A stretch of 64,000 nucleotides of DNA. Source: an uncultured virus (IMG/VR IMGVR_UViG_3300042867_001762) (taxonomy: Duplodnaviria > Heunggongvirae > Uroviricota > Caudoviricetes). Below are positions 275 through 63,897 of this stretch, piece after piece. Under the pieces are notes generated by a model that ran no database searches, had not been told where the DNA came from, and worked only from the letters and a program-made list of their open reading frames with translations. The stretch lies in IMG/VR virus record IMGVR_UViG_3300042867_001762; one strand, 5' to 3'. Every line of letters starts with the position of its first letter. Position 1 is the stretch's first letter. Position numbers and translations under genes: made by a program.

Positions 275-314
275 CAGGATCGGGGGCGGCCGGTTTTAGG
301 CCGGCCGCCTCCTG
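275..314 (-). promoter_or_regulatory. CCTAAA-N13-GATCC hairpin element, copy 1 (putative phage promoter)
   Basis: + strand CAGGATC-gggggcggccggt-TTTAGG; stem GGCGGCCGG/CCGGCCGCC. Confidence 0.7.
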
Positions 315-1067
315 TTACTTCACTTGCCGCAGCGGCTCTAAAGTGGTAGAGTCTACGATATCAGACGCGAAGTCTAGAGCGCCTTCTTTTACCACAGAGA
401 ACCGGCATACTACTGCTTCCCTATACGGATGCATATATACGCCAATTACATCAGCAGGATTTATCTTCACCACTAGTGTTTTGCCAACAAATCCAGAGTT
501 GGTATAAGCCTTGCCACCAGCCGACAATCCGCGCTCTGGACCTTTCTTGGAATGCCTAGAGATTTTGTTTCTCGGGTACTCAACTGTTTTGCCTGGCGAG
601 CAATCAAAGATTCCGTGATCCGCATCAAGGCCATCCACTGTTGCAAGCTTATACGCTAAGAAACATCCATCTTCCGTAATAGGCAGATTTTCGATACTTA
701 GCAGCGACTCGATCTCGCTATGTGCCCGTGTAGATGGATTTGCAAGGCAGTTGGTAGCGAATCGAGCTATTACTTCCCAGGGAAGACCTCGACTCATGCA
801 TGACTTGAGAAGCGACTCTAGCTTGCTGCCAAGGCGCAGCCCTTCAAATGAAAGGCTGCCGTCTTCTTCAAAGCTAAGCTCATTATTAGAGTATTTCTTA
901 ATGGCTCCTCGCGGATCCATTATCTCTCTAAGCGTTGAGATGTCACTGCTTTTAAGGGCATCAAGAGCTTCCTGGTATCTGGCAGAACTCTTGTGCAGCA
1001 TCTTTGGACCGTCGTCAAAGACAACGGTTATGCCTGAGTTGGAAACGATATGTGAAAGCATTTTCAA
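315..1067 (-). CDS. rIIB: rIIB-like lysis-inhibition/membrane protector protein
   Basis: LPITEDGCFLAYK, DCSPGKTVEYPR and VVKINPADV motifs typical of rIIB; coupled downstream of rIIA. Confidence 0.8.
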   Translation of the reverse strand: MKMLSHIVSNSGITVVFDDGPKMLHKSSARYQEALDALKSSDISTLREIMDPRGAIKKYSNNELSFEEDGSLSFEGLRLGSKLESLLKSCMSRGLPWEVIARFATNCLANPSTRAHSEIESLLSIENLPITEDGCFLAYKLATVDGLDADHGIFDCSPGKTVEYPRNKISRHSKKGPERGLSAGGKAYTNSGFVGKTLVVKINPADVIGVYMHPYREAVVCRFSVVKEGALDFASDIVDSTTLEPLRQVK

Positions 1068-3196
1068 TTACCCGCAGCAAGAACTGTTTTCATGTAATTT
1101 ACTACTGTTGGCTCGTGGCCGCCACGAGCCAAATCCCACATATTGACAAGTCGCAGCATCGGGAATGTCTCGAGGATAGCAATATAAGTCTCTTTTGGAA
1201 CGTCAGAAATGTACTCGCCTCGACCGATGCCAAGGCTACGACCCAGGCGAGACGATAGAAGAATGCCTAGCTTTTTCGAAGCAGCGCTGCCTTCTGTTGT
1301 CTCTGGGTCGAAGAACATTGGAGCGCCGGCCTTCTTGGCAAAGACCATTATGCGCTTTTGCTCGCCAGACATGTTGATTGAATCGAATAGGCCGGCCTGC
1401 TCCTGAAACCGCGTACCAGCCTCGCGCAATACGTCCGACAGCAGAAGGCAGCCGTCTTCCTTAGCCTTATCCAGATCTGCGGTGCGCACGCCAAGCAGGC
1501 ATGCGTTTACTGGAAGAACACCGGCTGTAACCAGGTGATCAAAGTCCGCTGCGAGATTGCGCGGCTCAGGATTATCTCCAAAACCTTTTGGTGCGAAACT
1601 CTCGATCTGGATAATAAGATTTAGCCTGTTGGCGTCGAACTCTACTGTATTCCAGTTCTTGCTTTTGGCCGAACGGTCAAAAGAGTTGCGAACAGGCGTC
1701 AGATAGATAGCGGCTCGCTTGGCCGCGTCTACCTTCGTAGGAGCACGCCGAGCGCGAACAAGTGGCTTGTCTTCGTCTTCGGTAGAGTCGGCGATCTCAG
1801 GATCTTCGCACTGGCTAGCAAGCACGAACAGATCGCCATTGATATTATTCTCCATCCACTTCTTGGCGCCATCTACCTTGGTAGGTGCTGGCACAAGAAT
1901 AGTTACGCTAGCGCGCGTCTGCGCCGCAAGGTACTTTGCGCGTGACACGCAAACAGCACGGTCAGTGTCCATGAGCACGATGAAATTGTTCAGAGGGTTG
2001 ATGCGCTCCTTACTCAGCACATCCATGGGACGAGCGGCGAAACGGCTGCCAGAACGATATACCTCGATAACAGAGGCAAAGCAATGATCATCAATGCATG
2101 GCCGAGCTTCCCACGTCTTGCCCTGCCAGATGATCTTGTCACTAGATACGATGCTCTCGATACCACTGTTCGAGATATACTGTAGCTCATTCGCCTTGCG
2201 CAGAGCTGCCTTAAGATTTGTCTCTGCGAGCACAGCGGCATTTACCTTGGCATTTGCGCGATCACGCACGCCAGTCAGCTTGCGGATGATGGCCTTAGTA
2301 GTAGAGTCCTTGTATTCCAGGGCTTCGCGGCTGGCGGCCATCTGTAGCTCGCCAATCTCAAAATGCATGACAAGGTTAGAACAGCGCCAACGCAGCCATT
2401 CGCTGTCCTGCTGATTCAGGCGATTAACATTTCCTTTTGTATCGTACTGATCAAAAAGCATCTTTGAGATATCTACGGGATAGCCAACGTTGCCCATGAT
2501 GGCCATCGGATCAGATTGGCGATCTTTTATGATCTTTACGTCACCAAGATCAATAGAAATAGTCGGCTGCTCAATGCTGACCTGGGCTCCAATAATCTCC
2601 GGTTTGATGCGAAACCAGCGATATAGATCGCGGGCGCGACTATGGAAGTCGCCTACGTCGGATGAATCTACCGGAATAACAATCTCGACACCGGTCTCTA
2701 GCGTCGGCTCACGAGCCAGCTCGCTAACTTCGCCGAGACCGCTCTCGTCCAGAAAAACGCTGTAGGAGATCTTCGTGCCGTTGCAGTGTGAATTGATCTG
2801 CCAGAAGTCCGTGTAAGCGAATGCCGACTTGCTACCGAATCCCATCTGACCATTGAATGCATTCGAGTTGCGCTTTGTTGAAGCGCCATACATGCAATAG
2901 ACTTCGCGGATACCCTCCTCGTCCAAACCTTTGCCGAAGTCACGAACCCGGAAGAACAGATCATTGTGATTGGGCAGCGTGATGCGAATAGGCTGATCAG
3001 GGATGCCAGCGTCAATATGCGCATCGCAAGCGTTGGTAGCATACTCGCGGCAAACCGCGAGCACCTTGTCAGAATAAAGCTTGCTACGGAGCACGGAAAA
3101 GATGTGCACCATATCTGACGCACTCTTGATGCCGAACTTTGAGGAGTTAAAGTTGCCGTTGCGCTCTACATCGAAACCATTGCTATCTTGCTTCAT
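1064..3196 (-). CDS. rIIA: rIIA-like protein with N-terminal GHKL/HSP90-type ATPase domain
   Basis: LYSDKVLAVCREYATNACDAH, VRDFGKGL, STKRNSN..GQMGFGSKSAFAY; adjacent rIIB. Confidence 0.88.
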   Translation of the reverse strand: MKQDSNGFDVERNGNFNSSKFGIKSASDMVHIFSVLRSKLYSDKVLAVCREYATNACDAHIDAGIPDQPIRITLPNHNDLFFRVRDFGKGLDEEGIREVYCMYGASTKRNSNAFNGQMGFGSKSAFAYTDFWQINSHCNGTKISYSVFLDESGLGEVSELAREPTLETGVEIVIPVDSSDVGDFHSRARDLYRWFRIKPEIIGAQVSIEQPTISIDLGDVKIIKDRQSDPMAIMGNVGYPVDISKMLFDQYDTKGNVNRLNQQDSEWLRWRCSNLVMHFEIGELQMAASREALEYKDSTTKAIIRKLTGVRDRANAKVNAAVLAETNLKAALRKANELQYISNSGIESIVSSDKIIWQGKTWEARPCIDDHCFASVIEVYRSGSRFAARPMDVLSKERINPLNNFIVLMDTDRAVCVSRAKYLAAQTRASVTILVPAPTKVDGAKKWMENNINGDLFVLASQCEDPEIADSTEDEDKPLVRARRAPTKVDAAKRAAIYLTPVRNSFDRSAKSKNWNTVEFDANRLNLIIQIESFAPKGFGDNPEPRNLAADFDHLVTAGVLPVNACLLGVRTADLDKAKEDGCLLLSDVLREAGTRFQEQAGLFDSINMSGEQKRIMVFAKKAGAPMFFDPETTEGSAASKKLGILLSSRLGRSLGIGRGEYISDVPKETYIAILETFPMLRLVNMWDLARGGHEPTVVNYMKTVLAAGN

Positions 3197-3200
3197 TTTG

Positions 3201-3527
3201 TCAAGTCCTCAGTTCATTAAAATCTGCAAAGTGTACAGGATTCCCATCACGATCAAAACACTCGGTAGTCATCGTGCCGGGGGCGGTTTGAGTTATTTGT
3301 GCTATTTGACCAGAATCATAAAACAGCGTTTCATGAGTCGCGTCGCTTGAGTATGTCTTTAGTTTGCGCAGTGCGCAGTAATATTTGGCAAAAGGACTGC
3401 CATCATCATTTAGCCATACAATAGCTTCGCGAACATGCTTCGGGTCCAGTGAAATATTGAGCCTTGTCGGCTTGCGGTTACAACTCTGCGTTATGCTTTC
3501 GATTAGCTCTGCCAGCCACAGCTTCAT
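3201..3527 (-). CDS. hypothetical protein (MKL N-terminus)
   Basis: ORF track; packed between GP88-like gene and rIIA. Confidence 0.6.
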   Translation of the reverse strand: MKLWLAELIESITQSCNRKPTRLNISLDPKHVREAIVWLNDDGSPFAKYYCALRKLKTYSSDATHETLFYDSGQIAQITQTAPGTMTTECFDRDGNPVHFADFNELRT

Positions 3528-6873: not shown

Positions 6874-7620
6874 TCAGGATCGGGCGGGGTCGACTTTAGG
6901 CCCGGCCCGCCCATCCAATTCAGATATAGTTCGCTTTAACTCGGAGAAGGCCGCTTGACTCAGCTGCGAGTATAGCGCGGTACTGGTCCAGCGACTGCGC
7001 TGAATATGCTCGCCTGCAACATCGCTCCAGACCTGCTGCTTTTCCTTATACCAAATTCGCCCATATTTAAAGTCTTCGGGCATGCCATTGTAATCTATTC
7101 CCGCGTCTGCAAGCATCTGTAGCTTTTCCGCGCTGTTCCTGCAATGCAGAGACTTGGCAGAAAAGTGCTCGCCGGCTAGCTGACTAACACTATTCTTGAA
7201 GCCAGACTTCAGCCGGGAAGCAAGATAATCAGGCATTTGATCTGCTGTGCAGTCGAATGCTCGCCCATCAAACAGCGCGGATTTGCCTAGCGCGAGAGAA
7301 AATGCGGTGCCTGCCGCCGAAGCACCAATACTGCATACCTTGGATTCTTTGCCGCCAAACGGCAGCTGAGATCCGGCCTCTGGACGTGCTATAAAAAAAG
7401 CACTTATCTCGTCCGAAACTTGATACACAAAGTCAGGAGTAAGATGCTTGATTATGCAGTCGGTTGCTGCGTGCATGCTTTGACAGATGCTATTGTCAAA
7501 AGGGGCAACAAATTCAGGAGACCGAACAAGACGAGAGAAGCCTTTGCCATCAAACCTGGCAACAAAGCTGTTTCGAAATGTCCGTGCCCCTGCGCCTTCT
7601 GCGTCTGAATTCCAGGTCAT
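6874..7620 (-). CDS. tRNA(His) guanylyltransferase Thg1-like protein
   Basis: ARFDGKGFSRL, YQVSDEIS, FGGK..KV, FDGRAF motifs. Confidence 0.88.
   Translation of the reverse strand: MTWNSDAEGAGARTFRNSFVARFDGKGFSRLVRSPEFVAPFDNSICQSMHAATDCIIKHLTPDFVYQVSDEISAFFIARPEAGSQLPFGGKESKVCSIGASAAGTAFSLALGKSALFDGRAFDCTADQMPDYLASRLKSGFKNSVSQLAGEHFSAKSLHCRNSAEKLQMLADAGIDYNGMPEDFKYGRIWYKEKQQVWSDVAGEHIQRSRWTSTALYSQLSQAAFSELKRTISELDGRAGPKVDPARS
6875..6916 (-). promoter_or_regulatory. CCTAAA-N13-GATCC element, copy 2
   Basis: CAGGATC-gggcggggtcgac-TTTAGG; overlaps 3' end of the Thg1 ORF. Confidence 0.7.
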
Positions 7621-10234: not shown

Positions 10235-10274
10235 CAGGATCGGCGGACCCCGGCTTTAGGGCCGGGGTGGCCTG
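10235..10274 (-). promoter_or_regulatory. CCTAAA-N13-GATCC element, copy 3
   Basis: CAGGATC-ggcggaccccggc-TTTAGG; stem ACCCCGGC/GCCGGGGT; 28 nt from ATG 10207. Confidence 0.72.
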
Positions 10275-14248: not shown

Positions 14249-14288
14249 CCGGATCGGGCGGGGCCGGGTTTAGGCCCGGCCCCACCTG
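14249..14288 (-). promoter_or_regulatory. CCTAAA-N13-GATCC element, copy 4
   Basis: CCGGATC-gggcggggccggg-TTTAGG; stem GGGGCCGGG/CCCGGCCCC. Confidence 0.72.
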
Positions 14289-16724: not shown

Positions 16725-16764
16725 CCGGATCGGGCGGAGCGGGCTTTAGGCCCGCCCCGACCTG
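16725..16764 (-). promoter_or_regulatory. CCTAAA-N13-GATCC element, copy 5
   Basis: CCGGATC-gggcggagcgggc-TTTAGG. Confidence 0.72.
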
Positions 16765-22279: not shown

Positions 22280-22681
22280 TCAAGGCAGATCAACATAAGC
22301 TTTTCTCCAAAAGAAAAATCTGCTGTTATTGGATAGTAGCGCGCGCGGATCTGCGTCAAAGGCAGCCCGCAGACGCCGATCTTCGTAGTAGTAAAACCAA
22401 AATGCCGGGTCAGATGAATGGGTTTTCTCGCAACCATCAGCATAATCTGTTTGTAGATATACTGACGGCTTATCTCCGGCAAGCTCAATATTGCATATAG
22501 CATAGGGCCGTTTGTACTCCATGCCGTCAAAGTAGCCCCATCCACAATTTATCGGTTGATACATTATATTGCGGACCATGTATGACCAAGCATCAACAAC
22601 TGTACGGGGCACGAACAGATTTTCATCTATTGTGCGCAGCATTTCTGGGAAATACAGAGCTGCGGCATCTACTAGCTTCAT
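22280..22681 (-). CDS. hypothetical protein (MKL N-terminus)
   Basis: ATG 22681 with GGAG RBS, 34 nt from element copy 6. Confidence 0.55.
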   Translation of the reverse strand: MKLVDAAALYFPEMLRTIDENLFVPRTVVDAWSYMVRNIMYQPINCGWGYFDGMEYKRPYAICNIELAGDKPSVYLQTDYADGCEKTHSSDPAFWFYYYEDRRLRAAFDADPRALLSNNSRFFFWRKAYVDLP

Positions 22682-22714
22682 TCTCTGTCTCCCTATGCGG
22701 GTTCCGGCGAGCAC

Positions 22715-22754
22715 CAGGATCGCCCGACACCGGCTTTAGGCCCGCCGCGACCTG
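22715..22754 (-). promoter_or_regulatory. CCTAAA-N13-GATCC element, copy 6
   Basis: CAGGATC-gcccgacaccggc-TTTAGG. Confidence 0.7.
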
Positions 22755-22845
22755 CTATTGCATGTCTTATGGTGGGAGCCGAACCTGTCGCCGACTGCCC
22801 GCTAAAATATCTAGGAAAGCTATCTGTGACTTATCAGCGGATGTT

Positions 22846-23244
22846 TTACTCATCAAGCGACGTAGAATACGCAAGCATCATTGTCTCATCCGGATAAAGA
22901 TATACTACATCGCCACAAACAACAGAAAGTATACTTGGAGAAGTAGGAGATCCTCCTATAGAGAACACAGATGAGTAATCGCTACAGAAAAAATCTGAAT
23001 GATCCCTTATATGTGGTAGGCGACCAATCCTAAGCGTCCTAAATGAACGTACTCCTAGGCAGAAATCTAGCTTTCCTCTAGTTAGGAACTTATCATGCAG
23101 AATGCTTTCTATCATGCCAACATATGCTGGCAGCACTTCTCCTCGCGCGCATCCATGTCTTTCGGCCGCAGTCATTTCCAGAGCAAGCATTAAACGCCGC
23201 TTTAAATCAGGCTCAAGTATTAGGGCCGCCGTGATTAGCTTCAT
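22846..23244 (-). CDS. hypothetical protein (MKL N-terminus)
   Basis: ORF track. Confidence 0.5.
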   Translation of the reverse strand: MKLITAALILEPDLKRRLMLALEMTAAERHGCARGEVLPAYVGMIESILHDKFLTRGKLDFCLGVRSFRTLRIGRLPHIRDHSDFFCSDYSSVFSIGGSPTSPSILSVVCGDVVYLYPDETMMLAYSTSLDE

Positions 23245-27119: not shown

Positions 27120-27156
27120 CAGGATCGGCCCAGCCCGGCTTTAGGCCCGGCGGGGA
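27120..27156 (-). promoter_or_regulatory. CCTAAA-N13-GATCC element, copy 7
   Basis: CAGGATC-ggcccagcccggc-TTTAGG. Confidence 0.7.
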
Positions 27157-33874: not shown

Positions 33875-33911
33875 CGGGATCGGGCGAGACCGGGTTTAGG
33901 GCCGTTCGCCT
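33875..33911 (-). promoter_or_regulatory. CCTAAA-N13-GATCC element, copy 8
   Basis: CGGGATC-gggcgagaccggg-TTTAGG. Confidence 0.7.
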
Positions 33912-34463
33912 CTAGCGACTGCAATTTGGCTGTCCCGGTGGACCGCGCCATAAAGCGCGCCCATAGCCTTTTAGTGCTGTTTGTGTATCTGTGCCAGAGA
34001 ACAACCAGTGCCACGGTTCCTTTGGTGCAGAATTATGCCAGCCGTATGCCGGTGCATTTTCCTGTAACCACGCGAATAATGCGCTTTTGCAAAGTCTCCG
34101 ACGCTTAGCTCGACAGCGCACGCGGGTTCCAGCAATGTCAACTGCTCTTCCGCTTTGATGCATGCTATAGCCTACCTGCGCAGCCCAGCGCCGCCGCTGT
34201 CGCATCATTCTATGTTGATCAGCAGTACTGCGATAAGCAGAATTAAGAATTAGATTAAAGCCTGCTGCCTTGGCTGCTTTTCGTAACTCTATATAAGAAG
34301 CAGCGGCATCATCCATTAGGATGAAATCACCTTTCCTGTCGCTGTCAACTACTTCGCCAATAAACGGCACAGAGTAGCCACCTAGGTAGGCATCCTCTAT
34401 GTATTTGCTCGCCAAGGAAGCGGTCGATATAAACAAGGACAAGATTACGAAAAGACCACGCAT
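33912..34463 (-). CDS. M15B D-Ala-D-Ala peptidase-like cell-wall enzyme with signal peptide
   Basis: SAYRS..DQ, SMHQSGRAVD, EPWHW; N-terminal signal peptide. Confidence 0.85.
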   Translation of the reverse strand: MRGLFVILSLFISTASLASKYIEDAYLGGYSVPFIGEVVDSDRKGDFILMDDAAASYIELRKAAKAAGFNLILNSAYRSTADQHRMMRQRRRWAAQVGYSMHQSGRAVDIAGTRVRCRAKRRRLCKSALFAWLQENAPAYGWHNSAPKEPWHWLFSGTDTQTALKGYGRALWRGPPGQPNCSR

Positions 34464-34473
34464 AACTACTCCG

Positions 34474-34506
34474 CTTTGTCCGGCTGCGCCGGTTTTAGGC
34501 TAGGCG
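34474..34506 (-). promoter_or_regulatory. degenerate element, copy 9 (CCTAAA-N13-GACA)
   Basis: TGTC-cggctgcgccggt-TTTAGG; same spacing and GC spacer, 11 nt from ATG 34463. Confidence 0.45.
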
Positions 34507-37028: not shown

Positions 37029-37070
37029 CAGGATCGGGCGACACCGGCTTTAGGCCCGCCCCGACCTACA
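37029..37070 (-). promoter_or_regulatory. CCTAAA-N13-GATCC element, copy 10 (divergent intergenic region)
   Basis: CAGGATC-gggcgacaccggc-TTTAGG; no minus-strand gene ends immediately upstream. Confidence 0.75.
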
Positions 37071-37165
37071 ATATTAACGATTTCTTGTGCAATCAGCAAA
37101 TGAATAATTTGCAAGTAGCTAGTCAAACAGATGCCAATGTAAGCTTTTCCGGAGTTCCTGCGCAC

Positions 37166-38161
37166 ATGAGCAAAAAGATCAAAAACATACAGAAGGCCGG
37201 CAGGAGCATAGGGCGCTCCCTCCGAGATCAGATTAGGCAGTCAATCAAGGATCACGAGATAGGTCGACTTATGCGCGAGTATCCGGAGTGGGTAGAGGTG
37301 GGAGTAGCTTCTGCTACGCGGGCAGCTCCCCGTGCCTGCGCTCTGTTACTAGGCATAGCAGAGGGTGCTGGTATAAGTTTTCAAGAAGCGTTTTGCATGT
37401 GGTATGAGGAGTTGACGTTTGCAGACACAGTAGATGCCCGCCTCCTTAAAGATACTGGCTGTACAGATATAGTTATTCGCACTGCCGCAGGAACTATAAT
37501 AGGGCATACAAACGACGAAGGCGAGGGAGCAGGTTCGCGCCTATTTAAGATTGGCATCAAGGGATTGCCAAGTCTTTTCATGGTATTTACCCGAGGCGGA
37601 CCCTCTATTGGTTTAAATAGCGCGGGGATTGTTATATCGGGCAATCAAATTGATGCAGCTGATACTCGCCCCGGCGTTCCGCGTATGGTTCTTTACGTAG
37701 AGGCATGCTGGTCGCAGACTATAGAAGAAGCAGAAAAAATACTGCTACACGAAGATCGTGCCAGCTCATTCAATAATATAATTGCTGACGCATCCGGTGA
37801 AGTAGTGAGCTTGGAGGCCAGCGCTAGGAAGTCTGTTAAGCTTACGCATCCCATGGGCGCAGCTGCTCATTCAAATCACTTTATATTCTTACCGGGAGTA
37901 GAGGCGCGAGAAGGCAGCTCCCTTGCCGGTTCAAGAGCCAGACTGGAGCGAGCTATAGAAGAAATAAAGACTGCTGGCGGGCAAATAGGCGTTACCCAGA
38001 TACTGCAAATGATGCGTACGCATGGCCTAGGCGGACTTTGTCGGCACGGAGATAACGAATCTCATACGGTATTTTCTACTGTGTTTTTGCCGACAGAGCG
38101 CGCTTTTATATATGCTGCTGGCAATCCATGCCGAGCGCAATTTAAGCTATACAGGTACTAA
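37166..38161 (+). CDS. C45-family (AAT) N-terminal-nucleophile cysteine hydrolase
   Basis: DTG/CTD autoprocessing site, GHTND, GLNSAG, AHSNHF, S..RL.R, GNPC; start moved to ATG 37166. Confidence 0.8.
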   Translation: MSKKIKNIQKAGRSIGRSLRDQIRQSIKDHEIGRLMREYPEWVEVGVASATRAAPRACALLLGIAEGAGISFQEAFCMWYEELTFADTVDARLLKDTGCTDIVIRTAAGTIIGHTNDEGEGAGSRLFKIGIKGLPSLFMVFTRGGPSIGLNSAGIVISGNQIDAADTRPGVPRMVLYVEACWSQTIEEAEKILLHEDRASSFNNIIADASGEVVSLEASARKSVKLTHPMGAAAHSNHFIFLPGVEAREGSSLAGSRARLERAIEEIKTAGGQIGVTQILQMMRTHGLGGLCRHGDNESHTVFSTVFLPTERAFIYAAGNPCRAQFKLYRY

Positions 38162-39181: not shown

Positions 39182-40219
39182 TCATTCGCCTATTTTTAGT
39201 AGATAGGCGTTGCTGATTACCTTGAATGATGCACGGGCGGGCGAGCCGCAATAAGCAGATAGCGCTGGGCTGATCCTCTCAGCAACAGGCCTAATAACAA
39301 GACCCTCTCTTGGATGGCCGCCTTGATAAGTGCCGTCAGCCATAGCTAGCACTCCTGCTAGGTCTATGTCAAGTGCCCCTCTCCATTCTACGGGCACAGT
39401 AGGGATACTACGGGCAGAGCAAAACTGTACAAATTCATCGTAACCTAAATAGCGCTGCTTGCTGATGTCGAATACCTGGAAAGCATAAAAAGCCTTGTCT
39501 CGAAGAGCTAGTCGATTGCTCTGAATAGAAGGACCGCAAAACTCACCTTGTATCGCAAAGCCGGCTGGTAGCAATTCAATCAAATTAAGCCGACGAGCGA
39601 CCTCCCAATGAGGTGAGTCAGGCAAATCTTTCAGAGAATAATTGCGGGTGCATACAAGCAGCCGCGAGCCAGACTCATCAGCAATCTTTGCAATACTTAG
39701 GCTTTGTCCGTCTAGTTTAACTGCGGCATAGCAGTCTACTCCGCGCAGCTCTTCTAGGATCTCCGGCGCGCTTTGTACTCGTAGCTCGTCTGTCTTTGGA
39801 AATAGATGCTTCGGAAAGGCGCCCGCGATCTCTCTAGCAGAAGAAGAGACAACCGGCTCCCACTTGCTTACACCTAGCGCAGCAGTTACGTCCTGACCTT
39901 CGACCGCTTCGCAGCCGGCAGGCAGAACGGAGATAGGCAGGGCAAGACCCTGGCTAAGCACGCCACGCATGCGTTTAGAGCGCAGCCTCCAACCAGACGG
40001 TCGCGGTATAACCTCTCCCGGCTTAGACCAGAGAAAAGCATATTGCTCTGTATCTGGCGGCACTGAGTCGAGCTCAAAATAAGTGCAAAGATTGCCCGCA
40101 GAGAACTCGCCACGCTTTGCAACTAGCTGCCAGCCTAGCACGCTGATCTTTTCGATTTTATCTGCGCCTTCAATTGGCTCAACCGCAAGTACCCGCTGAA
40201 TGCTTGCAAGCTTTCTCAT
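39182..40219 (-). CDS. RNA ligase, DRB0094 (Rnl5) family
   Basis: MRKLASIQ OB-like N-terminus, RGVLSQGL, PKTDE.RVQ, KLDG, QGE, EGLV, SFKVIS..YL. Confidence 0.92.
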   Translation of the reverse strand: MRKLASIQRVLAVEPIEGADKIEKISVLGWQLVAKRGEFSAGNLCTYFELDSVPPDTEQYAFLWSKPGEVIPRPSGWRLRSKRMRGVLSQGLALPISVLPAGCEAVEGQDVTAALGVSKWEPVVSSSAREIAGAFPKHLFPKTDELRVQSAPEILEELRGVDCYAAVKLDGQSLSIAKIADESGSRLLVCTRNYSLKDLPDSPHWEVARRLNLIELLPAGFAIQGEFCGPSIQSNRLALRDKAFYAFQVFDISKQRYLGYDEFVQFCSARSIPTVPVEWRGALDIDLAGVLAMADGTYQGGHPREGLVIRPVAERISPALSAYCGSPARASFKVISNAYLLKIGE

Positions 40220-40220
40220 G

Positions 40221-40406
40221 CTACTTGCCTTTCTTTTCTACATGGTTCTCGATAGCTTCTATTACAAATCGGGACACAAGTTCTTCGGTCAGTACTTGCT
40301 CATTGTACAGCCCAAGTATAGTTGCCTCGGCTTCATCATCCATCTCGACAGAGAGCTGCATGGAGCCATCAGGCAACTCTTTCTCTGCAATAACGCGGAT
40401 ATTCAT
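40221..40406 (-). CDS. small acidic protein
   Basis: ATG 40406 with AGGA RBS. Confidence 0.5.
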   Translation of the reverse strand: MNIRVIAEKELPDGSMQLSVEMDDEAEATILGLYNEQVLTEELVSRFVIEAIENHVEKKGK

Positions 40407-40407
40407 G

Positions 40408-40785
40408 TTACTTCCTAGGTGCTGAATAGGGCCTGACAACTACGCGCTTGCCGGGCACCGCTCGCAGAATATCTGCAATGGCGGCAGCACCGACAGGATT
40501 GTGTGAATGCACAAGAATGCTATCTGGAAAATGCTGAGGATTGTCTACAAGCCAGCGGGCTGCATCTTGTCCAGTTAGTTCTCTAGCTTGGCCATTGTCA
40601 ATCATTTGCTCGCCATCTACTTCTATTCCAAGATCATGATCAAGGCAAATAATATCAAATGTTTGTGATTTAGCAGCCGCAACGAAATCGGTATAGCTAT
40701 AAGCATGAACTACTTTGTGGCCGGGCAGTAGGAAGTCAAAGCCCTCGTGTCGAGAGGCATCGTCATCCAGTATAAGAAATCTCAT
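40408..40785 (-). CDS. cyclic-phosphate-processing receiver-domain protein
   Basis: ILDDD..R, CLDHDLG, TG.D, VHSHNPVGA. Confidence 0.8.
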   Translation of the reverse strand: MRFLILDDDASRHEGFDFLLPGHKVVHAYSYTDFVAAAKSQTFDIICLDHDLGIEVDGEQMIDNGQARELTGQDAARWLVDNPQHFPDSILVHSHNPVGAAAIADILRAVPGKRVVVRPYSAPRK

Positions 40786-41616
40786 TTATTCTTCCGCCGT
40801 TTTCCAAAGAAACCAGGTAATTGCTTGAACTTCCTGTACGCTTAGGCCAGTATCTGCGGCAGCGCGCTTATAGTCTGATATCATTGCCGCTCGTTCTGCA
40901 TCAGTAGGACTCTTTAGTCCTTTTAGTGGAACACGAACGCCGCGCCAAATGTTTATGGCATGGCCATCAAGCACCATATGATCGCGAGCGTGCTCGGGAT
41001 GTACCAAGCTGTCGTAGAATATAGTTACTTTTGGCCCAGTCAAATGATCAGCTACGTTTCCGGTGATCAATATGTTACGAGCCTTCTCTGCATTGGCAGG
41101 ATAAGCGGCAATATTGCGGTATCTGACATTAACAGGCGCTTCTTCTTCAGCTATTTGCCTGTGTATGTCAGAAGTATCGTATGATTTATCTTTCTTAGGG
41201 CCGGAGCCGACCGCGCCCTTTCCGCCGTCATGAACCTCTAGCAATAGGTTTTCTGCCGCCCGCAAATTAGATTTCCAATTGTTTCCAGGGCTTAGTACCG
41301 CTACTGTTGCTGCTACTAGGTCAAAAGGCTCGTTATATTTAACCGCCAATGCCTGCACATCTTGTCTAGCATTAGCATACCAATTGCGCCAGTAATCTAT
41401 TTCTTCTGGGCTGGCTGTTTTCAGTAGGGCCATAATATTATTATAGCCTCCGCCCATTTCCCAGTTAGGGATTTCGCTTAACTTGGCAGCGGGAGATTTT
41501 TTAGTTTCATCTATAACGGAAAGCGTTAGGTCATCAATATCATTTGCTAGCTTTTCCAAGCCAGCAGTATCAGCGGCATTAGCTGCCGCGACAAGGCTAT
41601 CTAATATCTTTTTCAT
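40786..41616 (-). CDS. shared N-terminal leader fused to HhH-like phage domain
   Basis: Leader MKKILDSLVAAANAADTAGLEKLANDID, then WY..A, AVLSP..W..N, GPKV, LDGHA, QAITW. Confidence 0.7.
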   Translation of the reverse strand: MKKILDSLVAAANAADTAGLEKLANDIDDLTLSVIDETKKSPAAKLSEIPNWEMGGGYNNIMALLKTASPEEIDYWRNWYANARQDVQALAVKYNEPFDLVAATVAVLSPGNNWKSNLRAAENLLLEVHDGGKGAVGSGPKKDKSYDTSDIHRQIAEEEAPVNVRYRNIAAYPANAEKARNILITGNVADHLTGPKVTIFYDSLVHPEHARDHMVLDGHAINIWRGVRVPLKGLKSPTDAERAAMISDYKRAAADTGLSVQEVQAITWFLWKTAEE

Positions 41617-41634
41617 AGAGCTATCCTAGAGCAT

Positions 41635-41835
41635 TCATAGTCGGTATTTGCGATGCAGCTCTGCTATCTGATCTTCTGTAAGAGGAATTGCTTTATCATG
41701 CCCCCGCTCTACTATTTGCAGAGCTGGAAGCGCCCTATCATCGGGAGACAGCGGCTTTGCTGATTCCTCAGCAATATAACCGTCTCGAATTACCTGAACG
41801 CTAGCAGGGGAGATATCAAGTATTATTACGGCCAT
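41635..41835 (-). CDS. small hypothetical protein
   Basis: AGGAGG RBS. Confidence 0.55.
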   Translation of the reverse strand: MAVIILDISPASVQVIRDGYIAEESAKPLSPDDRALPALQIVERGHDKAIPLTEDQIAELHRKYRL

Positions 41836-41894
41836 AGTCCCTCCTGTCTTACTTCAGAATTAAGCCCATATGAATATGGGGCGCCCGGAAGCGC

Positions 41895-43025
41895 TTATTC
41901 AGCGTACTTGGCGCCGATCTTTTCTAGAAGCCTTGGTTTAAGCAACTTGCAGAAAGCCGTTTCATTCATCGCGGCAATAGCTGCCCCTATGCTGGTAACC
42001 TTGCCTGCTCGCAGAGAAAACAGCGCCGCTGTACACTCTAGTCCCTCAGCGGCAATAGCAATTGCGAAATCTTTTTGAGAAGACACATCTCTGTGCCTTT
42101 GGAAGGCTGCCTCGTGCCTGGAAACTAGCTCTTCGATAATGGCGGTAGCTGCGTCTAAGTCTTCCTTGTATTCAGGAAAATGTACTACGATTTCTTCGTA
42201 GTCATTTGAGCGAGCCAGCAGCAGAATATTATTGGCGCTACGCAAGCCGTCTTTGGCCCGGTGGAGGGCAACGTACTGATCGCTCTTAATCTTTATGCGA
42301 TTAAAAGCAGCGTCCACTACTACAAAGCCCTCTAGCTCTGTAGCAGGATGTGCATTTGCAAATGCAGCCACTTCATCGGCATTAGCAAAGGCATAGTTCT
42401 TAGGACCATAATGGTTGGTGGCAACGGACCTCTCTTCTAGAGATCGGATGTTTTTGATTGCCAGTAGTCGTGCAAAGAAAGCAGCATGTCGCACAACAAC
42501 CATATTATGCGGCGAGCATACCTCGAAAGTCCAAGTCTCGTCCTTTGGCTGAGACTCTAAAAACGCCGTGTCAAGCGATGCCATGCATCGGCGAATCATA
42601 TCGCCCCACTTCATCATGCCGGAATTAACGGCAGAGCTTTCTAGGCCAGCCGGCAACTGAAACCGGGTACTATATTCAAAACGTTCGGTATGCGGACTCC
42701 ACCAACGGTTGACCATTGTGCCATCAATCTTTTCAAAGACCGTGGCAGAACTCCAGTCGATAGTATCTGCATAGTGCTCGCCCGCGTTGAAAAACTTTTT
42801 GATTGGCGCAGCAATCACGTCAAACGTAACCGCATCGAGCACAAGGCCACGACAGGCATAGGCATAAGGCTCGGTCCACTTGACAGTGATCTGGTCATAA
42901 TCCAGAATGAGGTGCTGTCCGTCGCTCTTGCCGGCAATACCATGCTCGCTCTCAAACCTTTCTAGCGAACCTCCTTCGCGGAGATATGCTTGTGTTGCAG
43001 CGAGAGATTCATGAAAGCCAACCAT
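41895..43025 (-). CDS. RNA ligase, T4 Rnl1-like
   Basis: CRGLV, KFFN.GE, EKIDG, TFE..SP.N..VV, EGFVV, RIKIK...Y. Confidence 0.88.
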   Translation of the reverse strand: MVGFHESLAATQAYLREGGSLERFESEHGIAGKSDGQHLILDYDQITVKWTEPYAYACRGLVLDAVTFDVIAAPIKKFFNAGEHYADTIDWSSATVFEKIDGTMVNRWWSPHTERFEYSTRFQLPAGLESSAVNSGMMKWGDMIRRCMASLDTAFLESQPKDETWTFEVCSPHNMVVVRHAAFFARLLAIKNIRSLEERSVATNHYGPKNYAFANADEVAAFANAHPATELEGFVVVDAAFNRIKIKSDQYVALHRAKDGLRSANNILLLARSNDYEEIVVHFPEYKEDLDAATAIIEELVSRHEAAFQRHRDVSSQKDFAIAIAAEGLECTAALFSLRAGKVTSIGAAIAAMNETAFCKLLKPRLLEKIGAKYAE

Positions 43026-43543
43026 TAGCAACTCCGCGCGAACTGTTTCGCATATTCGTAAAGCATGATATTACCGGACTGAGCAGCATTAAGCGAGTAG
43101 CCAAAGCCTGGCATTGGGATCTGCACTACGTCGCCGTGATGCAGGATGTCAACTGGAACGCCCAGCTGCTCGTGACCAATAACAATACAGGTGATTGCGC
43201 TATGGTCAAAGGCATAGTCATGCAAGCTTGTGGCATCATTTGCCAGCTCCGCGCAGACAATTCTCCTATTGTTGTCGCGGCAGAATTGCAGGAAGTCTCC
43301 AGGCGAGGAAAAATTACGAATCGTAACTAAGTCCGAAGTAGTGCCCGAAAGTTCACGCAGTAATCCGGGAGGAGGACAGGAGCCGATTACATTTACGGCT
43401 GATGCGCCAAAGCAAGCTGCTGCACGGATGAGGTAAGCGATATTCTCTTCGCAGCGGAAGTTGACGCTAGTTACCTCCACGGGCAATAGGTCTGCCGTAG
43501 GCAGCTTGCGTCGATAGCGCTCAGTCCTTGATTCTGCTCGCAT
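43025..43543 (-). CDS. SpoU/TrmH-family RNA 2'-O-methyltransferase
   Basis: ENIAYLIRAAACFG, IGHEQLGV, IPMPG..SLNAA. Confidence 0.9.
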   Translation of the reverse strand: MRAESRTERYRRKLPTADLLPVEVTSVNFRCEENIAYLIRAAACFGASAVNVIGSCPPPGLLRELSGTTSDLVTIRNFSSPGDFLQFCRDNNRRIVCAELANDATSLHDYAFDHSAITCIVIGHEQLGVPVDILHHGDVVQIPMPGFGYSLNAAQSGNIMLYEYAKQFARSC

Positions 43544-43915: not shown

Positions 43916-43952
43916 CAGGATCGGCCCGACCGGTCTTTAGGTCCGGCCAGCT
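43916..43952 (-). promoter_or_regulatory. CCTAAA-N13-GATCC element, copy 11
   Basis: CAGGATC-ggcccgaccggtc-TTTAGG. Confidence 0.7.
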
Positions 43953-46963: not shown

Positions 46964-47000
46964 CAGGATCGAGCGACGCGGGCTTTAGGCCCGCCCGGTT
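46964..47000 (-). promoter_or_regulatory. CCTAAA-N13-GATCC element, copy 12 (divergent intergenic region)
   Basis: CAGGATC-gagcgacgcgggc-TTTAGG; stem GCGGGC/GCCCGC. Confidence 0.75.
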
Positions 47001-50083: not shown

Positions 50084-50120
50084 CGGGATCGGGCGGGTCC
50101 GGCTTTAGGGCCGCCCCCGC
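50084..50120 (-). promoter_or_regulatory. CCTAAA-N13-GATCC element, copy 13 (just after a terminator)
   Basis: CGGGATC-gggcgggtccggc-TTTAGG. Confidence 0.75.
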
Positions 50121-50134: not shown

Positions 50135-50164
50135 AAAAAGGCGGCGGACTAGCCGCCGCCTTTT
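50135..50164 (-). terminator. intrinsic terminator of the LamG gene
   Basis: AAAAAGGCGGCGG-actag-CCGCCGCCTTTT; U run on minus strand. Confidence 0.85.
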
Positions 50165-56574: not shown

Positions 56575-57261
56575 TCATGATCGCGACCCGGCGGTTTTAG
56601 GCCCGACCGCCCCCGTCTGCTCGGCAAGTATTTCCTGCCAGCGAGCAGAGATCAGATCCATGTAGGCTCGCGGCTTCATGTCGCCCCAGCGGTAGTAGCC
56701 AATAGACCAGCCGTCGTTTACCTCTACGAGCAGCGTCTTGCCGCCGCAAATACCTACATCAAGCGCATACCCGCAAGGGGCATCGGCATAATCACGAACC
56801 ATTGCCTGCACCACTGCCGGATCAGGCTCAGCCGGCTCATCTCCGGCGTCATACCTGGAGTGGCCAATAATCCTGCCGTCTAATATGTAGTATCGAAACT
56901 CTGCATCAAATGCTACGGATTCTGCTGCCAAGACGATCTCTTCGTCAGGCACAGTCTCCGTAATGGTAGAGCGGATGCCGCCGGTAAAAAGTTTTGTTCG
57001 CAGTGGTTTGCAAAAGGCATCCGCTGGTACGTCAGCATACCGACAGCGCCATACTAGCCGACCTAGATAATGGTTTAGTGCGGCAGGATAGGTAGGTAGC
57101 TGCGGCAGAACAACATCATTTATCTCTGCGTAGCGCCGGACAAACTCTACTGATCCGACAGGTACTGTTTCGCTCCTGACGGCAACGCGATGCAGGTCTG
57201 CGTACGGAACATGGCTGTACCTGTTGTCAGATGCGGCAATAAGTATTTTTTCTTCACTCAT
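56575..57261 (-). CDS. ATP-grasp protein (R2K clade)
   Basis: VPVGSVEFV, FCKP..KLFTG, EFRYYI, YALDVG, LVEVNDG.S.G.Y. Confidence 0.8.
   Translation of the reverse strand: MSEEKILIAASDNRYSHVPYADLHRVAVRSETVPVGSVEFVRRYAEINDVVLPQLPTYPAALNHYLGRLVWRCRYADVPADAFCKPLRTKLFTGGIRSTITETVPDEEIVLAAESVAFDAEFRYYILDGRIIGHSRYDAGDEPAEPDPAVVQAMVRDYADAPCGYALDVGICGGKTLLVEVNDGWSIGYYRWGDMKPRAYMDLISARWQEILAEQTGAVGPKTAGSRS
56576..56614 (-). promoter_or_regulatory. CCTAAA-N13-GATC element, copy 14 (variant)
   Basis: CATGATC-gcgacccggcggt-TTTAGG; overlaps 3' end of the ATP-grasp ORF. Confidence 0.62.
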
Positions 57262-61006: not shown

Positions 61007-61041
61007 TAAAAAAGGGGAGGGCGGAGCAACCCGCCCTCCCC
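61007..61041 (-). terminator. intrinsic terminator
   Basis: Minus strand GGGGAGGGCGG-gttgct-CCGCCCTCCCC-TTTTTT. Confidence 0.88.
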
Positions 61042-61048
61042 GCGAGGA

Positions 61049-61306: not shown

Positions 61307-62460
61307 TTCACATTGACAACATCACCAAAGGGCGCCTTGAAGCCATCGTTGTTTACGACAACCCAGAGCGTAGTAATCGGACAGGTCGGTTCGCGGTACA
61401 GGTAGCCGTCAGTAAAGCATACCACGCCACGATAACCATCTGCGATAGCAAGATCAAAGCCGGGCTGCATGTCCGTGCCGCCACGACCAGGGAAGGCAAG
61501 CTGCGCCGAGGGGCGAAACTTCTTAATCTTCCCGTGAACATCTGCATCGCAGAAGACGACATCAATTTGCATGATGCGCGTCATCAGGTTAAGCTGACCG
61601 CCGATGTGAGCGAGATATGAATCGCTCATCGAGCCAGAGGTATCGACAATAGCAAGAATCTTATTCTTGACAGTTGTCTTCTCGCCCTGGAACGGGAACC
61701 CGTACCGCTTGCTGAAGCGCTTCCAAGTGAGGCGGCGCTTAGGGTCTGCGATACGAGCCATCCACATGCGGGCCTTGGCTCGCCAGTCGATATCATGCGA
61801 TTCAACCGAAAGAATTTCTTCAATCATTGAATCGGCCATGCTACCGGCCTTAAGCGTGCGGCCACGGTCAGCGTTACGACCCATCAGGTAGCGGCGAGCC
61901 ATTTCCTTCACAACTCGCGTGCCTGTGGTGTCATCTTCCTCCGACCAACCGGAGTGATCGTCCATGCCATCGCCGAACTGATCGGCGACCTCCTGCTCGG
62001 TGAACTTCTGCTTCATCAGAGCATAATACTCTTCCGCAGAAAGACCGGCAGGGAAGTTGAAGCGCGGATCGGTATGGGAGATACAACCCTCGGGCAGATC
62101 CCAGTTGCCATGCTGGGGATCTGTGATGAGCTGATTGATTGCCATGTCCTTGGCAATGTTCTCCGTCCTGCGGCGATCAGGCTCCATGGTAAGACGAGTA
62201 GTGCAGTGGCTCAGTGCCACGTGCAGATACTCGTGCACGATAACGCCAATCTTTTCACGGACCGAGAATGAGTTCATCATCTTCGGGTTCATGAGCAGCG
62301 TTGGCTTGCCGTGCTTGACAAAGACGCCGGCAGCAAACTTCATTTCTTCGTCTTCGATAATTGAAGACTGGTGAAAGAAGTAAGCGATGAACGGCTCTTG
62401 GTCAGTCATCTCTACAATTTCGCCGGTAGAGAGTGACTTGAGATTAAGTAGCGAGGTCAT
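61294..62460 (-). CDS. DUF2201-type metallopeptidase-like plus vWA domain protein (second MoxR partner)
   Basis: HEYLH, NIAKDMAIN, DDHSGW, DTSGSM, GRGGTD, FTDGY. Confidence 0.88.
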   Translation of the reverse strand: MTSLLNLKSLSTGEIVEMTDQEPFIAYFFHQSSIIEDEEMKFAAGVFVKHGKPTLLMNPKMMNSFSVREKIGVIVHEYLHVALSHCTTRLTMEPDRRRTENIAKDMAINQLITDPQHGNWDLPEGCISHTDPRFNFPAGLSAEEYYALMKQKFTEQEVADQFGDGMDDHSGWSEEDDTTGTRVVKEMARRYLMGRNADRGRTLKAGSMADSMIEEILSVESHDIDWRAKARMWMARIADPKRRLTWKRFSKRYGFPFQGEKTTVKNKILAIVDTSGSMSDSYLAHIGGQLNLMTRIMQIDVVFCDADVHGKIKKFRPSAQLAFPGRGGTDMQPGFDLAIADGYRGVVCFTDGYLYREPTCPITTLWVVVNNDGFKAPFGDVVNVKWKD

Positions 62461-62489
62461 AATCTTCCTTGGTTAAGGGTTTAGTAAAT

Positions 62490-62519
62490 CTGAATACCGG
62501 CGACCTGACCGGTATTCAG
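62490..62519 (-). other. intergenic 11-bp hairpin between AAA and vWA genes
   Basis: CTGAATACCGG-cgacctga-CCGGTATTCAG. Confidence 0.55.
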
Positions 62520-62541
62520 TATATGCCTGGTACCAATTAGA

Positions 62542-63705
62542 TCAGACGCTCTTCTTCTTGCGACCCTTCTTGGCCGCATCGCTAGCGTCAGCCGTAGTCG
62601 CGTCGGCCGTAGCAGCGGTCGCATCAGCGGCAGCAGCCTCTGGCTTGGCGTAGATCTTAGCCTTCGCATCAAGCAGGGCACGGACGGCAGCCTTCAGGTC
62701 GGCGCTCTTGTTGATGATATCACCGTGGCGATCATCAAGCGCCTCGAAGAAGGCCGAGAATGGCTCGTGACCCATGCGGCTGTAGAACAGGGCAGCATTG
62801 ATACGCTGCTCGTCCTTGATGTCATCGCGGTTCATCACCTCCATGACATCGCGCAGAGCCTGGATAACCTGCGTCAGCTGGAAGCCCTTGGGGCTCTTCA
62901 GCTTGCCGTTGAAGATATCCATGATATCCAGCGGCTTGAAGTTATCACGAACCCAGCTAGAGAACGTGTTGGCTGCAACCTCGCCGATGAATGGCGCGGA
63001 GTAAACCATCAGACGGTTATCACGACCAGCAACCTCTGGCAGCGACTCGCGGGTATCCTCGCGATTCATGAGGGTACGACCGAGGAACGTCCAGCTACGA
63101 CGGCTCGTAACAGGCTCGTTCGGCACGCCGCGCTTACCCTCTGGAATATCCAGAAGATTCTTGTGTTGCGTGATGAACTGAACAACGGCAGAGTGAACGC
63201 CGTTGGCAGGATCGCTGGCCCAGCTGACCCACTCCGAAGCGGTCGGAGTAAAGTCGACAATCGCAAAACGATTGCAGAGCGCCTGGTCAAGCGTGGCAGT
63301 CTGGTACTTCAGACCGTTACCGGCAGCGAACACGATGGTGCTGTCGGGAAGGTTGCGACCACCGGCACGACGGTCGAGAGTCAGCTGCATGGCGAGAGGC
63401 TGCATGTCCTCGCGAGCACGGTCGATCTCGTCGAGGAAGAGAACAGCGTTCTCGAGATCGTACCACCACGTCGGGGCAGCGTAGCGGGTAACAGCAGTGC
63501 CGTCCGCCAGCTTATCGACGAAAGGCATACCGACAAGATCGGCGGGCTCAAGCTCCGAGAGACGGAGGTCGACAACCCGCATGCCGCGCTTCTGAGCGAT
63601 CATTCGCACAATACTCGACTTGCCGAGACCAGCGTCGCCAGTAAGCAGGCGGGCCTGGGTGTTCGGGAGAAGTGCGTCGAAATCAACAAGCTGCGAGATA
63701 TCCAT
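62542..63705 (-). CDS. MoxR-type AAA+ ATPase (second copy)
   Basis: GDAGLGKS, DLVGMP, LFLDEIDRA, AGN, LDQALCNRF, SRRSW; Ala/Lys-rich tail. Confidence 0.9.
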   Translation of the reverse strand: MDISQLVDFDALLPNTQARLLTGDAGLGKSSIVRMIAQKRGMRVVDLRLSELEPADLVGMPFVDKLADGTAVTRYAAPTWWYDLENAVLFLDEIDRAREDMQPLAMQLTLDRRAGGRNLPDSTIVFAAGNGLKYQTATLDQALCNRFAIVDFTPTASEWVSWASDPANGVHSAVVQFITQHKNLLDIPEGKRGVPNEPVTSRRSWTFLGRTLMNREDTRESLPEVAGRDNRLMVYSAPFIGEVAANTFSSWVRDNFKPLDIMDIFNGKLKSPKGFQLTQVIQALRDVMEVMNRDDIKDEQRINAALFYSRMGHEPFSAFFEALDDRHGDIINKSADLKAAVRALLDAKAKIYAKPEAAAADATAATADATTADASDAAKKGRKKKSV

Positions 63706-63741
63706 CTGACTATCCTTGGTTAGTGTTACTCTGCGTCATAG

Positions 63742-63836
63742 ACGGTCGGGTTAAGAGACTTGCACTTCCGACCCGGTGCAAGCCGTAGAGGAGAACGCTG
63801 GGTACGACCCAGTATAGCAGCCTCGCTGCGTTCTCC
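63742..63836 (-). ncRNA. candidate structured RNA leader (three-way junction plus H-type pseudoknot)
   Basis: Five complementary pairings visible in ~95 nt between element copy 15 and the AAA gene RBS. Confidence 0.5.
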
Positions 63837-63858
63837 GTGGTGGCCGCCGGTCGCCGCT

Positions 63859-63897
63859 CAGGATCGGCCCGGCCCGGCTTTAGGCCCGGCGCCGCCT
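63859..63897 (-). promoter_or_regulatory. CCTAAA-N13-GATCC element, copy 15
   Basis: CAGGATC-ggcccggcccggc-TTTAGG. Confidence 0.72.

Follow-up and report, generated by a model that had tools for sequence, protein, structure and literature searches.

Promoters read by phage-encoded or extracytoplasmic function (ECF)-type sigma factors are known from SPO1 (gp28), phiEco32 (gp36) and the group 4 sigmas of bacteria, and the usual ECF promoter words are 'AAC' and 'CGT'. A second arrangement is described for the MotA-dependent middle promoters of T4, in which an upstream box lies 12 +/- 1 bp from the -10 element (PMC2988021). A third is the PeSL, a mobile cassette in which a strong sigma-70-like promoter is joined to a terminator stem-loop; about 100 are described per phage pair, placed before orphan genes in hyperplastic regions, where they mediate gene shuffling (PMC2839356). 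The stem-loop of a PeSL lies upstream of, between or over the promoter boxes, giving five subclasses (PMC2839356), and the accounts of these cassettes report promoter, terminator and mini-circle activity shown by experiment (PMC2839356, PMC4122927). Here we analyze a dispersed two-box element, CCTAAA-N13-GATCC, in an uncultured member of the Caudoviricetes (IMG/VR record IMGVR_UViG_3300042867_001762). We conclude that it is probably a phage-specific promoter for small accessory genes that is often set within a hairpin and is organized as PeSL-like cassettes. No paper listed in the literature searches describes this motif.

The stretch that was analyzed, hereafter the window, is 64,000 nt long and corresponds to the reverse strand of bases 42481-106480 in the 371,675-bp record. 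Searching its + strand for GGATC-N13-TTTAGG, we found 13 exact copies in a single orientation, compared with 0.03 expected from 100 shuffles. The initial annotation had counted 15 copies; the other two are a GATCA variant (at 56576) and a half-site (at 34474). Its positions are borne out, each exact copy starting 2 nt further along. Across the record as a whole, there are 65 exact copies in the forward direction and one in the opposite direction, and a reversed control pattern does not occur at all. The relaxed pattern CTAAA-N13-GATC has 78 forward matches, 75 of which fall in one 144-kb arc running from 350.8 kb through the end of the record at 371.6 kb and on to 123.2 kb. The other three (172.7, 175.2 and 289.4 kb, in the remaining 227 kb) are inside genes and have no flanking consensus. 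Two relaxed matches in the window, at 2509 and 29174, lack the flanking consensus entirely and look like chance. A weight matrix built from the 75 copies returned, at 14 bits or more, the same 75 forward sites, one reverse site and nothing else; a shuffled genome returned none.

The gap between the boxes is rigid. No CCTAAA-Nx-GATCC with x = 11, 12, 14 or 15 exists in the genome, and all 48 forward CCGGNCCTAAA words are followed by GATC at N13. The uniform orientation and exact 13-nt gap first noticed in the window hold for 13 of 13 exact copies there, with no other spacing genome-wide. As a Dam-linked control, we asked how often GATC itself occurs, and it is not avoided (observed/expected 0.96).

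Aligned, the copies define a conserved block of about 30 bases, longer than first noted: CCGG-N-CCTAAA-NN-C-N10-GATCC(TG), or more fully cCGG-y-CCTAAA-r-n-C ... y-GATCC-TG-w-w-r-g. They form two classes. Class A comprises 27 copies, which lie at 350.8-361.7 kb or, in a few cases, in arrays, and its spacer is AT-rich and itself conserved (consensus CCGGTCCTAAAAACAttmTcTTTTGATCCTGTTAG). These copies occur once per 250-700 nt, each before one small gene. Class G comprises 48 copies, including all those in the window, and has a GC-rich spacer (CCGGcCCTAAAGCCGG...CCGATCCTGAAGG). Its members lie mostly 13-26 nt after an upstream stop codon (about 20 cases) and head operons of 1-8 kb. The varying, GC-rich spacer reported initially therefore describes every window copy but not the genome, since it is AT-rich in 27 of the 75 copies.

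The position of the element relative to genes is equally distinctive. A Shine-Dalgarno (SD) sequence, a start codon and an open reading frame (ORF) of at least 40 aa follow within 60 nt in 52 of the 75 copies, compared with 13% of 2000 random positions in the arc, and the median distance from GATCC to the start codon is 39 nt. Judged by neighboring gene calls, 54 copies lie between co-directional genes and six between divergent genes. Nine overlap an ORF, in most cases the final ~25 nt of the gene upstream or a doubtful small call; a further five belong to an array free of ORFs that adjoins a doubtful minus-strand ORF, and one is at the record end. The downstream genes mostly encode 55-200 aa and are without a family. 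Fourteen window copies had been placed 11-50 nt before a start codon; 12 of the 14 full copies do stand at 14-47 nt, and two stand at 88 and 156 nt. The gene calls confirm that copies 10 and 12 (37031 and 46966) lie between divergent genes, and copy 13 (50086) indeed follows a terminator, a hairpin plus T-run 27 nt upstream.

Terminators are concentrated in front of class A. A strict GC hairpin with a T-run occurs 5-90 nt upstream of 11 of the 27 class A copies, where terminator density predicts about 3%; in class G, only 2 of 48 copies have one. For 12 of these 13 copies, only 14-38 nt separate the terminator stem from CCTAAA, too little to accommodate another promoter upstream. When the class A region was scanned for the sigma-70 consensus, no such site turned up before class A genes on the coding strand; the single weak coding-strand site is not at the motif. 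Together, the positions of the copies relative to genes and terminators support, in silico, the earlier suggestion that the element serves initiation rather than termination. We rejected the identification of the element as an intrinsic terminator: no T-run follows the class G hairpins, and terminator-like sites occur at most 90 nt downstream in only 2 of the 75 copies. Also rejected was a sigma-70 promoter (TTGACA, 16-18 nt, TATAAT), as GATCCT shares three of six bases with TATAAT and the scan of the class A region found no sigma-70 site at the motif.

We then compared the element across related phages. Scanning IMG/VR for the pattern turned up two related fragments: the first, about 75% identical, carries six syntenic copies, and the second, near-identical, carries three. 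In the six orthologous sites aligned from the former, both boxes are intact, and the spacer and upstream arm have changed. Scanning metagenome contigs of the Joint Genome Institute (JGI) gave 61 loci. Of these, 38 are relatives (63-90% nucleotide identity) that add 72 unique copies, and the remaining 23 are single unrelated chance matches. Conservation among 58 orthologous pairs extends beyond the bases used for the search: it is 70-90% for CCGG, about 90% for the spacer C and 60-80% for the CTG after GATC; the flanks, in a gapless comparison, are about 30% conserved. In 96.6 kb of sequence from the relatives' loci, each of the 71 unique copies has a 13-nt gap, and gaps of 9-12 or 14-18 nt do not occur. 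The scan of the genome and its relatives that had been proposed as a check on orientation and spacing thus gave 75 forward copies versus one reverse, with a gap that is always 13 nt. The element is real, strongly non-random and conserved in the clade.

The relatives also show what the spacer is free to do. Their counterparts of class A read aCCGGGCCTAAAGCCGGTG..aaCGATCC, with a GC-rich spacer and the same boxes and gap. Because the spacer has switched between GC-rich and AT-rich in one orthologous region while the boxes and gap were kept, we favor a protein that reads duplex DNA over an RNA fold. A scan of bacterial genome contigs with CCTAAAGCCGG-N9-GATCC, which has a 14-nt spacer unlike that of the element, gave a single match in an Armatimonadota metagenome-assembled genome and was uninformative on the host.

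From these results we propose that the core CCGG-N-CCTAAA-NN-C-N10-GATCC(TG) would act as a two-box promoter site with a rigid 13-nt gap. Transcription would begin a few bases past GATCC, near the conserved purine 6-7 nt downstream, and produce leaders of about 10-50 nt that include the SD. Class A copies would head one-gene units, each with its own hairpin-plus-T terminator, and class G copies would head the 1-8 kb operons directly after an upstream stop codon. The reader would be the host core enzyme together with a phage-specified specificity factor, since no phage RNA polymerase is detectable. All 75 copies fall within the 144-kb arc of small, mostly unknown genes, in keeping with the initial annotation's idea that the motif marks a regulon.

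Could the element work in RNA instead? It might form a hairpin with a CCUAAAG loop and a GAUCC tail in read-through RNA and serve as a processing site, a 3'-end stabilizer or a site for a phage RNA-binding protein. In class G, CCTAAA(G) often lies in the loop of an inverted repeat, and in about half of the copies a word (T)AGCAGG or TGACAGG, complementary to the CCTG that follows GATC, stands some 13-16 nt upstream. Since bulges differ among copies, we judged the hairpins by folding each copy against shuffles. Relative to arm-shuffled controls, 13 of the 48 class G copies have z < -2, where about one is expected, and at two orthologous sites (record 96222 and 106182) compensatory changes on both sides keep the stem. 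The placement of class G just after stop codons, rarely behind a T-run terminator, would also suit an RNA-level role. However, the mean z is only about -1.0 in class G, and class A is no different on average; with z < -2 in 13 of 48 copies, the hairpin is frequent and not obligatory. Class A has no stem around CCTAAA, yet its 27 copies keep the boxes and the exact gap, and the relatives have replaced the spacer composition wholesale with boxes and gap untouched. In addition, some copies lie between divergent genes, where one would not expect a transcript arriving from upstream on the same strand, and class A copies come right after a terminator. We therefore consider an RNA-level element improbable.

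A second alternative keeps the protein and moves the promoter. Here the boxes would be an operator bound by a phage regulator, such as the Zn-ribbon plus sigma4-like helix-turn-helix (HTH) protein encoded at record 22499-23071, that switches a class of genes whose weak core promoter lies nearby. Rigid spacing is what an operator would show, the boxes are about two helical turns apart (TCCT...TCCT, 21 bp), and the phage encodes two small sigma-region-4-type HTH proteins, one of whose genes ends inside a motif copy. On the other hand, no other conserved element occurs between the terminator and the start codon, and the coding strand of the class A region offers no sigma-70-like site for such a core promoter. 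An activator that replaced -35 recognition in the manner of MotA would in any case merge with the promoter we propose. A separate operator is thus unlikely.

The phage might instead have borrowed host promoters of the sigma-28 (FliA/SigD) type, which drive class 3 flagellar genes, a resemblance pointed out in the initial annotation. The words TAAAG and CCGAT are indeed present in the GC-spacer class, whose 48-copy consensus reads TAAAg and CCGATCC, like the FliA words given in PMC4203485. The 27 copies of class A have TAAAAA, and TTTTGATCC rather than CCGAT. The E. coli FliA motifs described in that source consist of TAAA, 15 nt and GCCGATAA, whereas the element reads TAAA-N10-(G/C)CCGAT and is 5 bp shorter; counted from T in TAAA to C in CGAT, the distance is 16 nt here and 21 nt in E. 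coli FliA motifs such as tar (PMC4203485). The spacing is also invariant, and neither the conserved CCGG nor the CC before TAAA has a counterpart in the FliA motif. We regard this origin as very unlikely.

Finally, synteny breakpoints coincide with copies of the element. In the one relative contig compared (L087-L090), two junctions have the homology block beginning 19 nt past CCTAAA and a third has it beginning 34 nt past; compared with the phage, the block order differs, one cassette is relocated and others are missing. Such breakpoints, and copies that flank paralogous small genes, would also be accounted for if the element were purely a linker for recombination or a selfish short repeat that disperses cassettes and plays no part in transcription. 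This reading is most improbable, because only some 20 of about 30 positions are conserved around a free spacer, which makes a poor exchange substrate compared with the ~100-bp PeSLs (PMC2839356), and because strict orientation and distance to the SD and ATG would be left unexplained. Two further observations concern cassettes. Four paralogous copies of one small gene (record 358003, 361197, 362601 and 12131) each have the motif before them and are 65-73% identical to a relative's copy. In one relative (metagenome locus L092), the ortholog of the copy at record 11890 has as its neighbor, ~400 nt away, DNA homologous to the structural region at record 221 kb, a junction that is either a rearrangement or a chimeric assembly.

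Of the described systems, the probable promoter proposed here most resembles the PeSLs, as characterized by Arbiol et al. (2010, PMC2839356) and Comeau et al. (2014, PMC4122927). Both are composites of promoter and stem-loop, present in tens of copies before small orphan genes in variable regions, with an SD and start codon at the 3' end and a stem-loop that lies upstream of or over the boxes by subclass. In both, cassette order and content vary between relatives and breakpoints occur at the motif, as seen here in the one relative contig. They differ in that PeSLs are read by the host holoenzyme, whereas the boxes here are unlike TTGACA or TATAAT, and in that PeSL activity is established by experiment, whereas that of the element is predicted. 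The lineage differs as well: the major head protein here is closest to its counterpart in Bacillus phage G (44.8% identity), and the replicase is of the DnaE type.

If the element is a promoter, what reads it? Pfam found no phage RNA polymerase among all 272 called proteins of at least 120 aa, and PHROGs found none among 191 proteins. Together the two covered 463 of the 519 called genes, with arc genes below 120 aa and 234 of the 384 PHROGs-listed proteins left out. Six-frame searches with PF00940, PF00562 and PF00623 gave no match at E <= 1, the one with PF00940 being weak, as control genomes were also blank. A regular-expression search of the large unknown proteins found no catalytic D-x-D-x-D word. 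The largest candidates are similarly silent: a 2696-aa protein has no PDB sequence match, no family and no PHROG, and a 2378-aa protein has no RNA polymerase match in Pfam or PHROGs. We rejected two systems on these grounds. Promoters for a T7-like or multisubunit phage RNA polymerase were set aside as no such polymerase was matched in the sequence searches. An N4-type hairpin promoter with a giant virion RNA polymerase was set aside as class A has no hairpin at the box, PF00940 has no match, and neither the 2696-aa nor the 2378-aa protein matches a polymerase at sequence level.

A sigma-like protein is nevertheless encoded. The gene at record 177957-178742 specifies 262 aa that resemble a divergent ECF sigma with a Zn-ribbon insert. 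TIGR02937, the NCBIfam ECF superfamily, matches residues 50-248 with an E-value of 3e-6, scoring 26.9 bits against a cut-off of 42.9, and Pfam Sigma70_r2 scores 19.9-22.2 bits, under its cut-off. Ten homologs share 45-93% identity, and several are named 'sigma24 family' in their source. The alignment of these 11 sequences contains an ECF-like region 2, an invariant CxxC...CxxC insert and a region 4 HTH, parts that are also present in an AlphaFold model. Among the Foldseek PDB matches listed, about 30 of 46 are sigma factors, including ECF types. By family matches, alignment and Foldseek, then, sigma domains 2 and 4 occur in one small protein. As in the promoters of phage and ECF sigmas, two boxes with tight spacing are here accompanied by a small dedicated sigma with only domains 2 and 4; it differs in carrying the Zn-ribbon insert between domains, and its connection to the motif is a putative one. 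A two-domain sigma fits a rigid two-box promoter, and that both are two-part is the sole link between them. We put this protein forward tentatively as the leading candidate reader. The phage-encoded sigma factor or RNA polymerase of the initial annotation is thus matched by a sigma-like protein, with a presumptive tie to the motif, and by no detected polymerase. The sigma-like gene overlaps the start of the 2696-aa ORF (record 177957-186804; L018:5999-14846). A survey of jumbo phages describes the group with a Pol III-type polymerase, that of phage G, as lacking RNA polymerase and sigma factors (PMC7824862); unlike that statement, the clade placed near phage G has a sigma-like gene.

The second, distinctly less likely candidate is a MotA-like route through one of the two small sigma-region-4-type HTH proteins. 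The first, of 191 aa (record 22499-23071), has an N-terminal Zn-ribbon-like CxxC...C..C and a region-4-type HTH with no region 2, and it is this gene that ends inside a motif copy. The second, of 130 aa (record 205986-206375), has a region-4-type HTH only. Compared with the T4 middle promoters as outlined in PMC2988021, the element shares a phage-specific box near -30, a short fixed distance (13 bp here) to a -10-like element, and a class of pre-replicative genes. In contrast, T4 has an excellent sigma-70 -10 (TAtaaT) where this phage has GATCC(T), and the gap here shows none of the +/-1 tolerance. Pfam and PHROGs found no MotA or AsiA homolog in the genes they covered. The rest of the probability falls to an unrecognized or virion-delivered factor or to a host alternative sigma.

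These comparisons bear on the "unusual geometry" first ascribed to the promoter, for which they give no support in that form. An upstream block of 11-14 nt (CCGGNCCTAAANNC) puts CCGGNC 17-18 bp from GATCCT, the normal -35/-10 distance. Either GATCCT would be the -10 hexamer with TAAA in the spacer, or CCTAAA would be a box near -30, 13 bp from the -10. With CCGGyC at an ordinary -35 distance, or a MotA-like box, an unusual geometry is not established.

Several points weigh against a phage-specific promoter read by such a factor. Many class G copies are in inverted repeats with compensatory changes between orthologs, and the single-strand structure of these copies may also matter. Almost all genes genome-wide are on one strand, so orientation alone cannot discriminate between readings. 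At least 12 copies stand 59-310 nt apart in ORF-free arrays, which is odd for mRNA promoters. GATCCT matches TATAAT only at A2, T3 and T6, and the words CCTAAA and CGATCC are unlike those usual in ECF promoters. For the sigma candidate, the AlphaFold model is mediocre (predicted local distance difference test score 68, from 11 sequences) and the Foldseek E-values are weak, the best being 6e-5. Its gene lies ~55 kb past the 123-kb end of the arc with no motif copy before it, and if the arc is the early region, the sigma must be supplied first. Gene calls made in this analysis were crude (519 genes, 90.6% coding). Of the 24 sequencing runs listed, not one is catalogued as RNA. The statistics, positions and conservation are thus observed, and initiation, like the start site and the reader, is inferred.

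The arc does look like an early region, judging from a repeat-rich stretch of about 1 kb before the first class A copy and from the one-gene units of its first 10 kb. The stretch itself (record 349801-350876; L028:8515-9590) consists of 1.08 kb of non-coding, C/A-rich DNA with ~70-nt tandem repeats and stands immediately ahead of that copy; possibly it represents an origin or the first-entering genome end. The array at record 361.6-363.7 kb (L029:1000-3100) holds at least 12 copies with no ORFs between them and GTCAACGGGACAACCGGGGGCGGG five times following promoters. Searches found no tRNA or Rfam family in the ORF-free arrays. The sole reverse copy (361865-361888) faces a forward copy at 361766, an arrangement that could yield short sense and antisense RNAs. 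A different word, CTATTAA(T/A), occurs 13 times in the genome. Eight occurrences are intergenic, all eight outside the arc, often just after terminators and two in hairpin loops; examples within record 124-350 kb are at 170782, 208573, 235822 and 238519. It may be a second, possibly late, promoter word.

The source is a myovirus-like jumbo phage whose record has 51% G+C and a terminal overlap of 127 bp. Nearly every gene is on the record + strand, which is the window minus strand, and the intergenic share of the genome is only 9.4%. Its genes include those for a DnaE-type polymerase, gyrase, Lon, GroEL/ES, DnaJ and two trigger-factor-like proteins. Further genes encode a tubulin homolog, rIIA/rIIB, ribonucleotide reductase, ThyA/DHFR, a gpA-type terminase, sheath and baseplate proteins and 5 tRNAs. 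The DNA sequencing runs that contain the phage are lake and river metagenomes, and when 4 kb of the window was compared with the phage collection by megablast, no match was found.

Copies of the element and associated features in the window (window coordinates; record coordinates refer to the 371,675-bp record)
Feature	Window position	Strand	Record position	Remarks
Promoter-like copy, GC-spacer class	277..300	-	106182	9-bp stem around CCTAAAA; ortholog in relative G001 with compensatory stem changes
Copy	6877..6900	-	99582	Overlaps 3' end of upstream ORF; leader ~88 nt
Copy	10237..10260	-	96222	ATG of 424-aa AAA ATPase gene 30 nt on
Copy	14251..14274	-	92208	Strongest hairpin, -34 kcal/mol, z -3.8
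Copy	16727..16750	-	89732	
Copy	22717..22740	-	83742	
Copy	27122..27145	-	79337	
Copy	33877..33900	-	72582	
Half-site	34476..34499	-		CCTAAA (34499-34494) kept, GACAA for GATCC; ATG at 34462 ~13 nt on; <14 bits in weight-matrix scan
Copy	37031..37054	-	69428	Divergent intergenic region
Copy	43918..43941	-	62541	14 nt to ATG
Copy	46966..46989	-	59493	Divergent intergenic region
Copy	50086..50109	-	56373	Terminator 27 nt upstream
Intrinsic-terminator-like hairpin + T-run	50137..50163	-		Closes 1096-aa laminin-G-domain gene
Variant copy, GATCA	56578..56601	-	49881	Within 3' end of upstream ORF
Copy	63861..63884	-	42598	156-nt structured leader to next called gene

Several genes lie near these copies. 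Genes for rIIA-like (710 aa) and rIIB-like (248 aa) proteins stand in tandem at window 315-3196 on the minus strand, downstream of the copy at 6877, and a Thg1-like tRNA-His guanylyltransferase is encoded at 6874-7620. Beside the copy at 37031, a + strand ORF (37085-38161) encodes an AAT acyltransferase domain. A cluster of RNA-repair type on the minus strand, at window 39182-43543 (record 62.9-67.3 kb), falls within one motif-headed operon and comprises a SpoU methylase, two RNA ligases, a cyclic-phosphate receiver domain and DUF7178. Elsewhere in the record, at 130339-130954 (L015:15353-15968), a 616-nt intergenic stretch is extremely GC-rich and has 28-nt repeats.

At its most far-reaching, the promoter reading would mean that phages without an RNA polymerase run a whole accessory arc from a promoter class with no host counterpart. 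A Zn-ribbon ECF-like sigma or a virion factor would read a box, often displayed in a hairpin loop, at a rigid 13 bp from GATCC, the cassettes would be joints for shuffling, and both the geometry and the early takeover would be undescribed for phages that depend on the host polymerase. We regard this full picture as speculative and rather doubtful. In its plainer form, the element supplies a putative transcription map, with some 75 units spread across 144 kb, for uncultured freshwater jumbo phages of a clade that is related to phage G. The candidate pair of promoter and factor could be tested in E. coli or in vitro without the phage's own host, and if the ECF-like sigma does read the element, the two would make a compact orthogonal expression module. 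The PeSL-like behavior of the element would widen the concept of mobile regulatory cassettes beyond T4-like phages and sigma-70 promoters.

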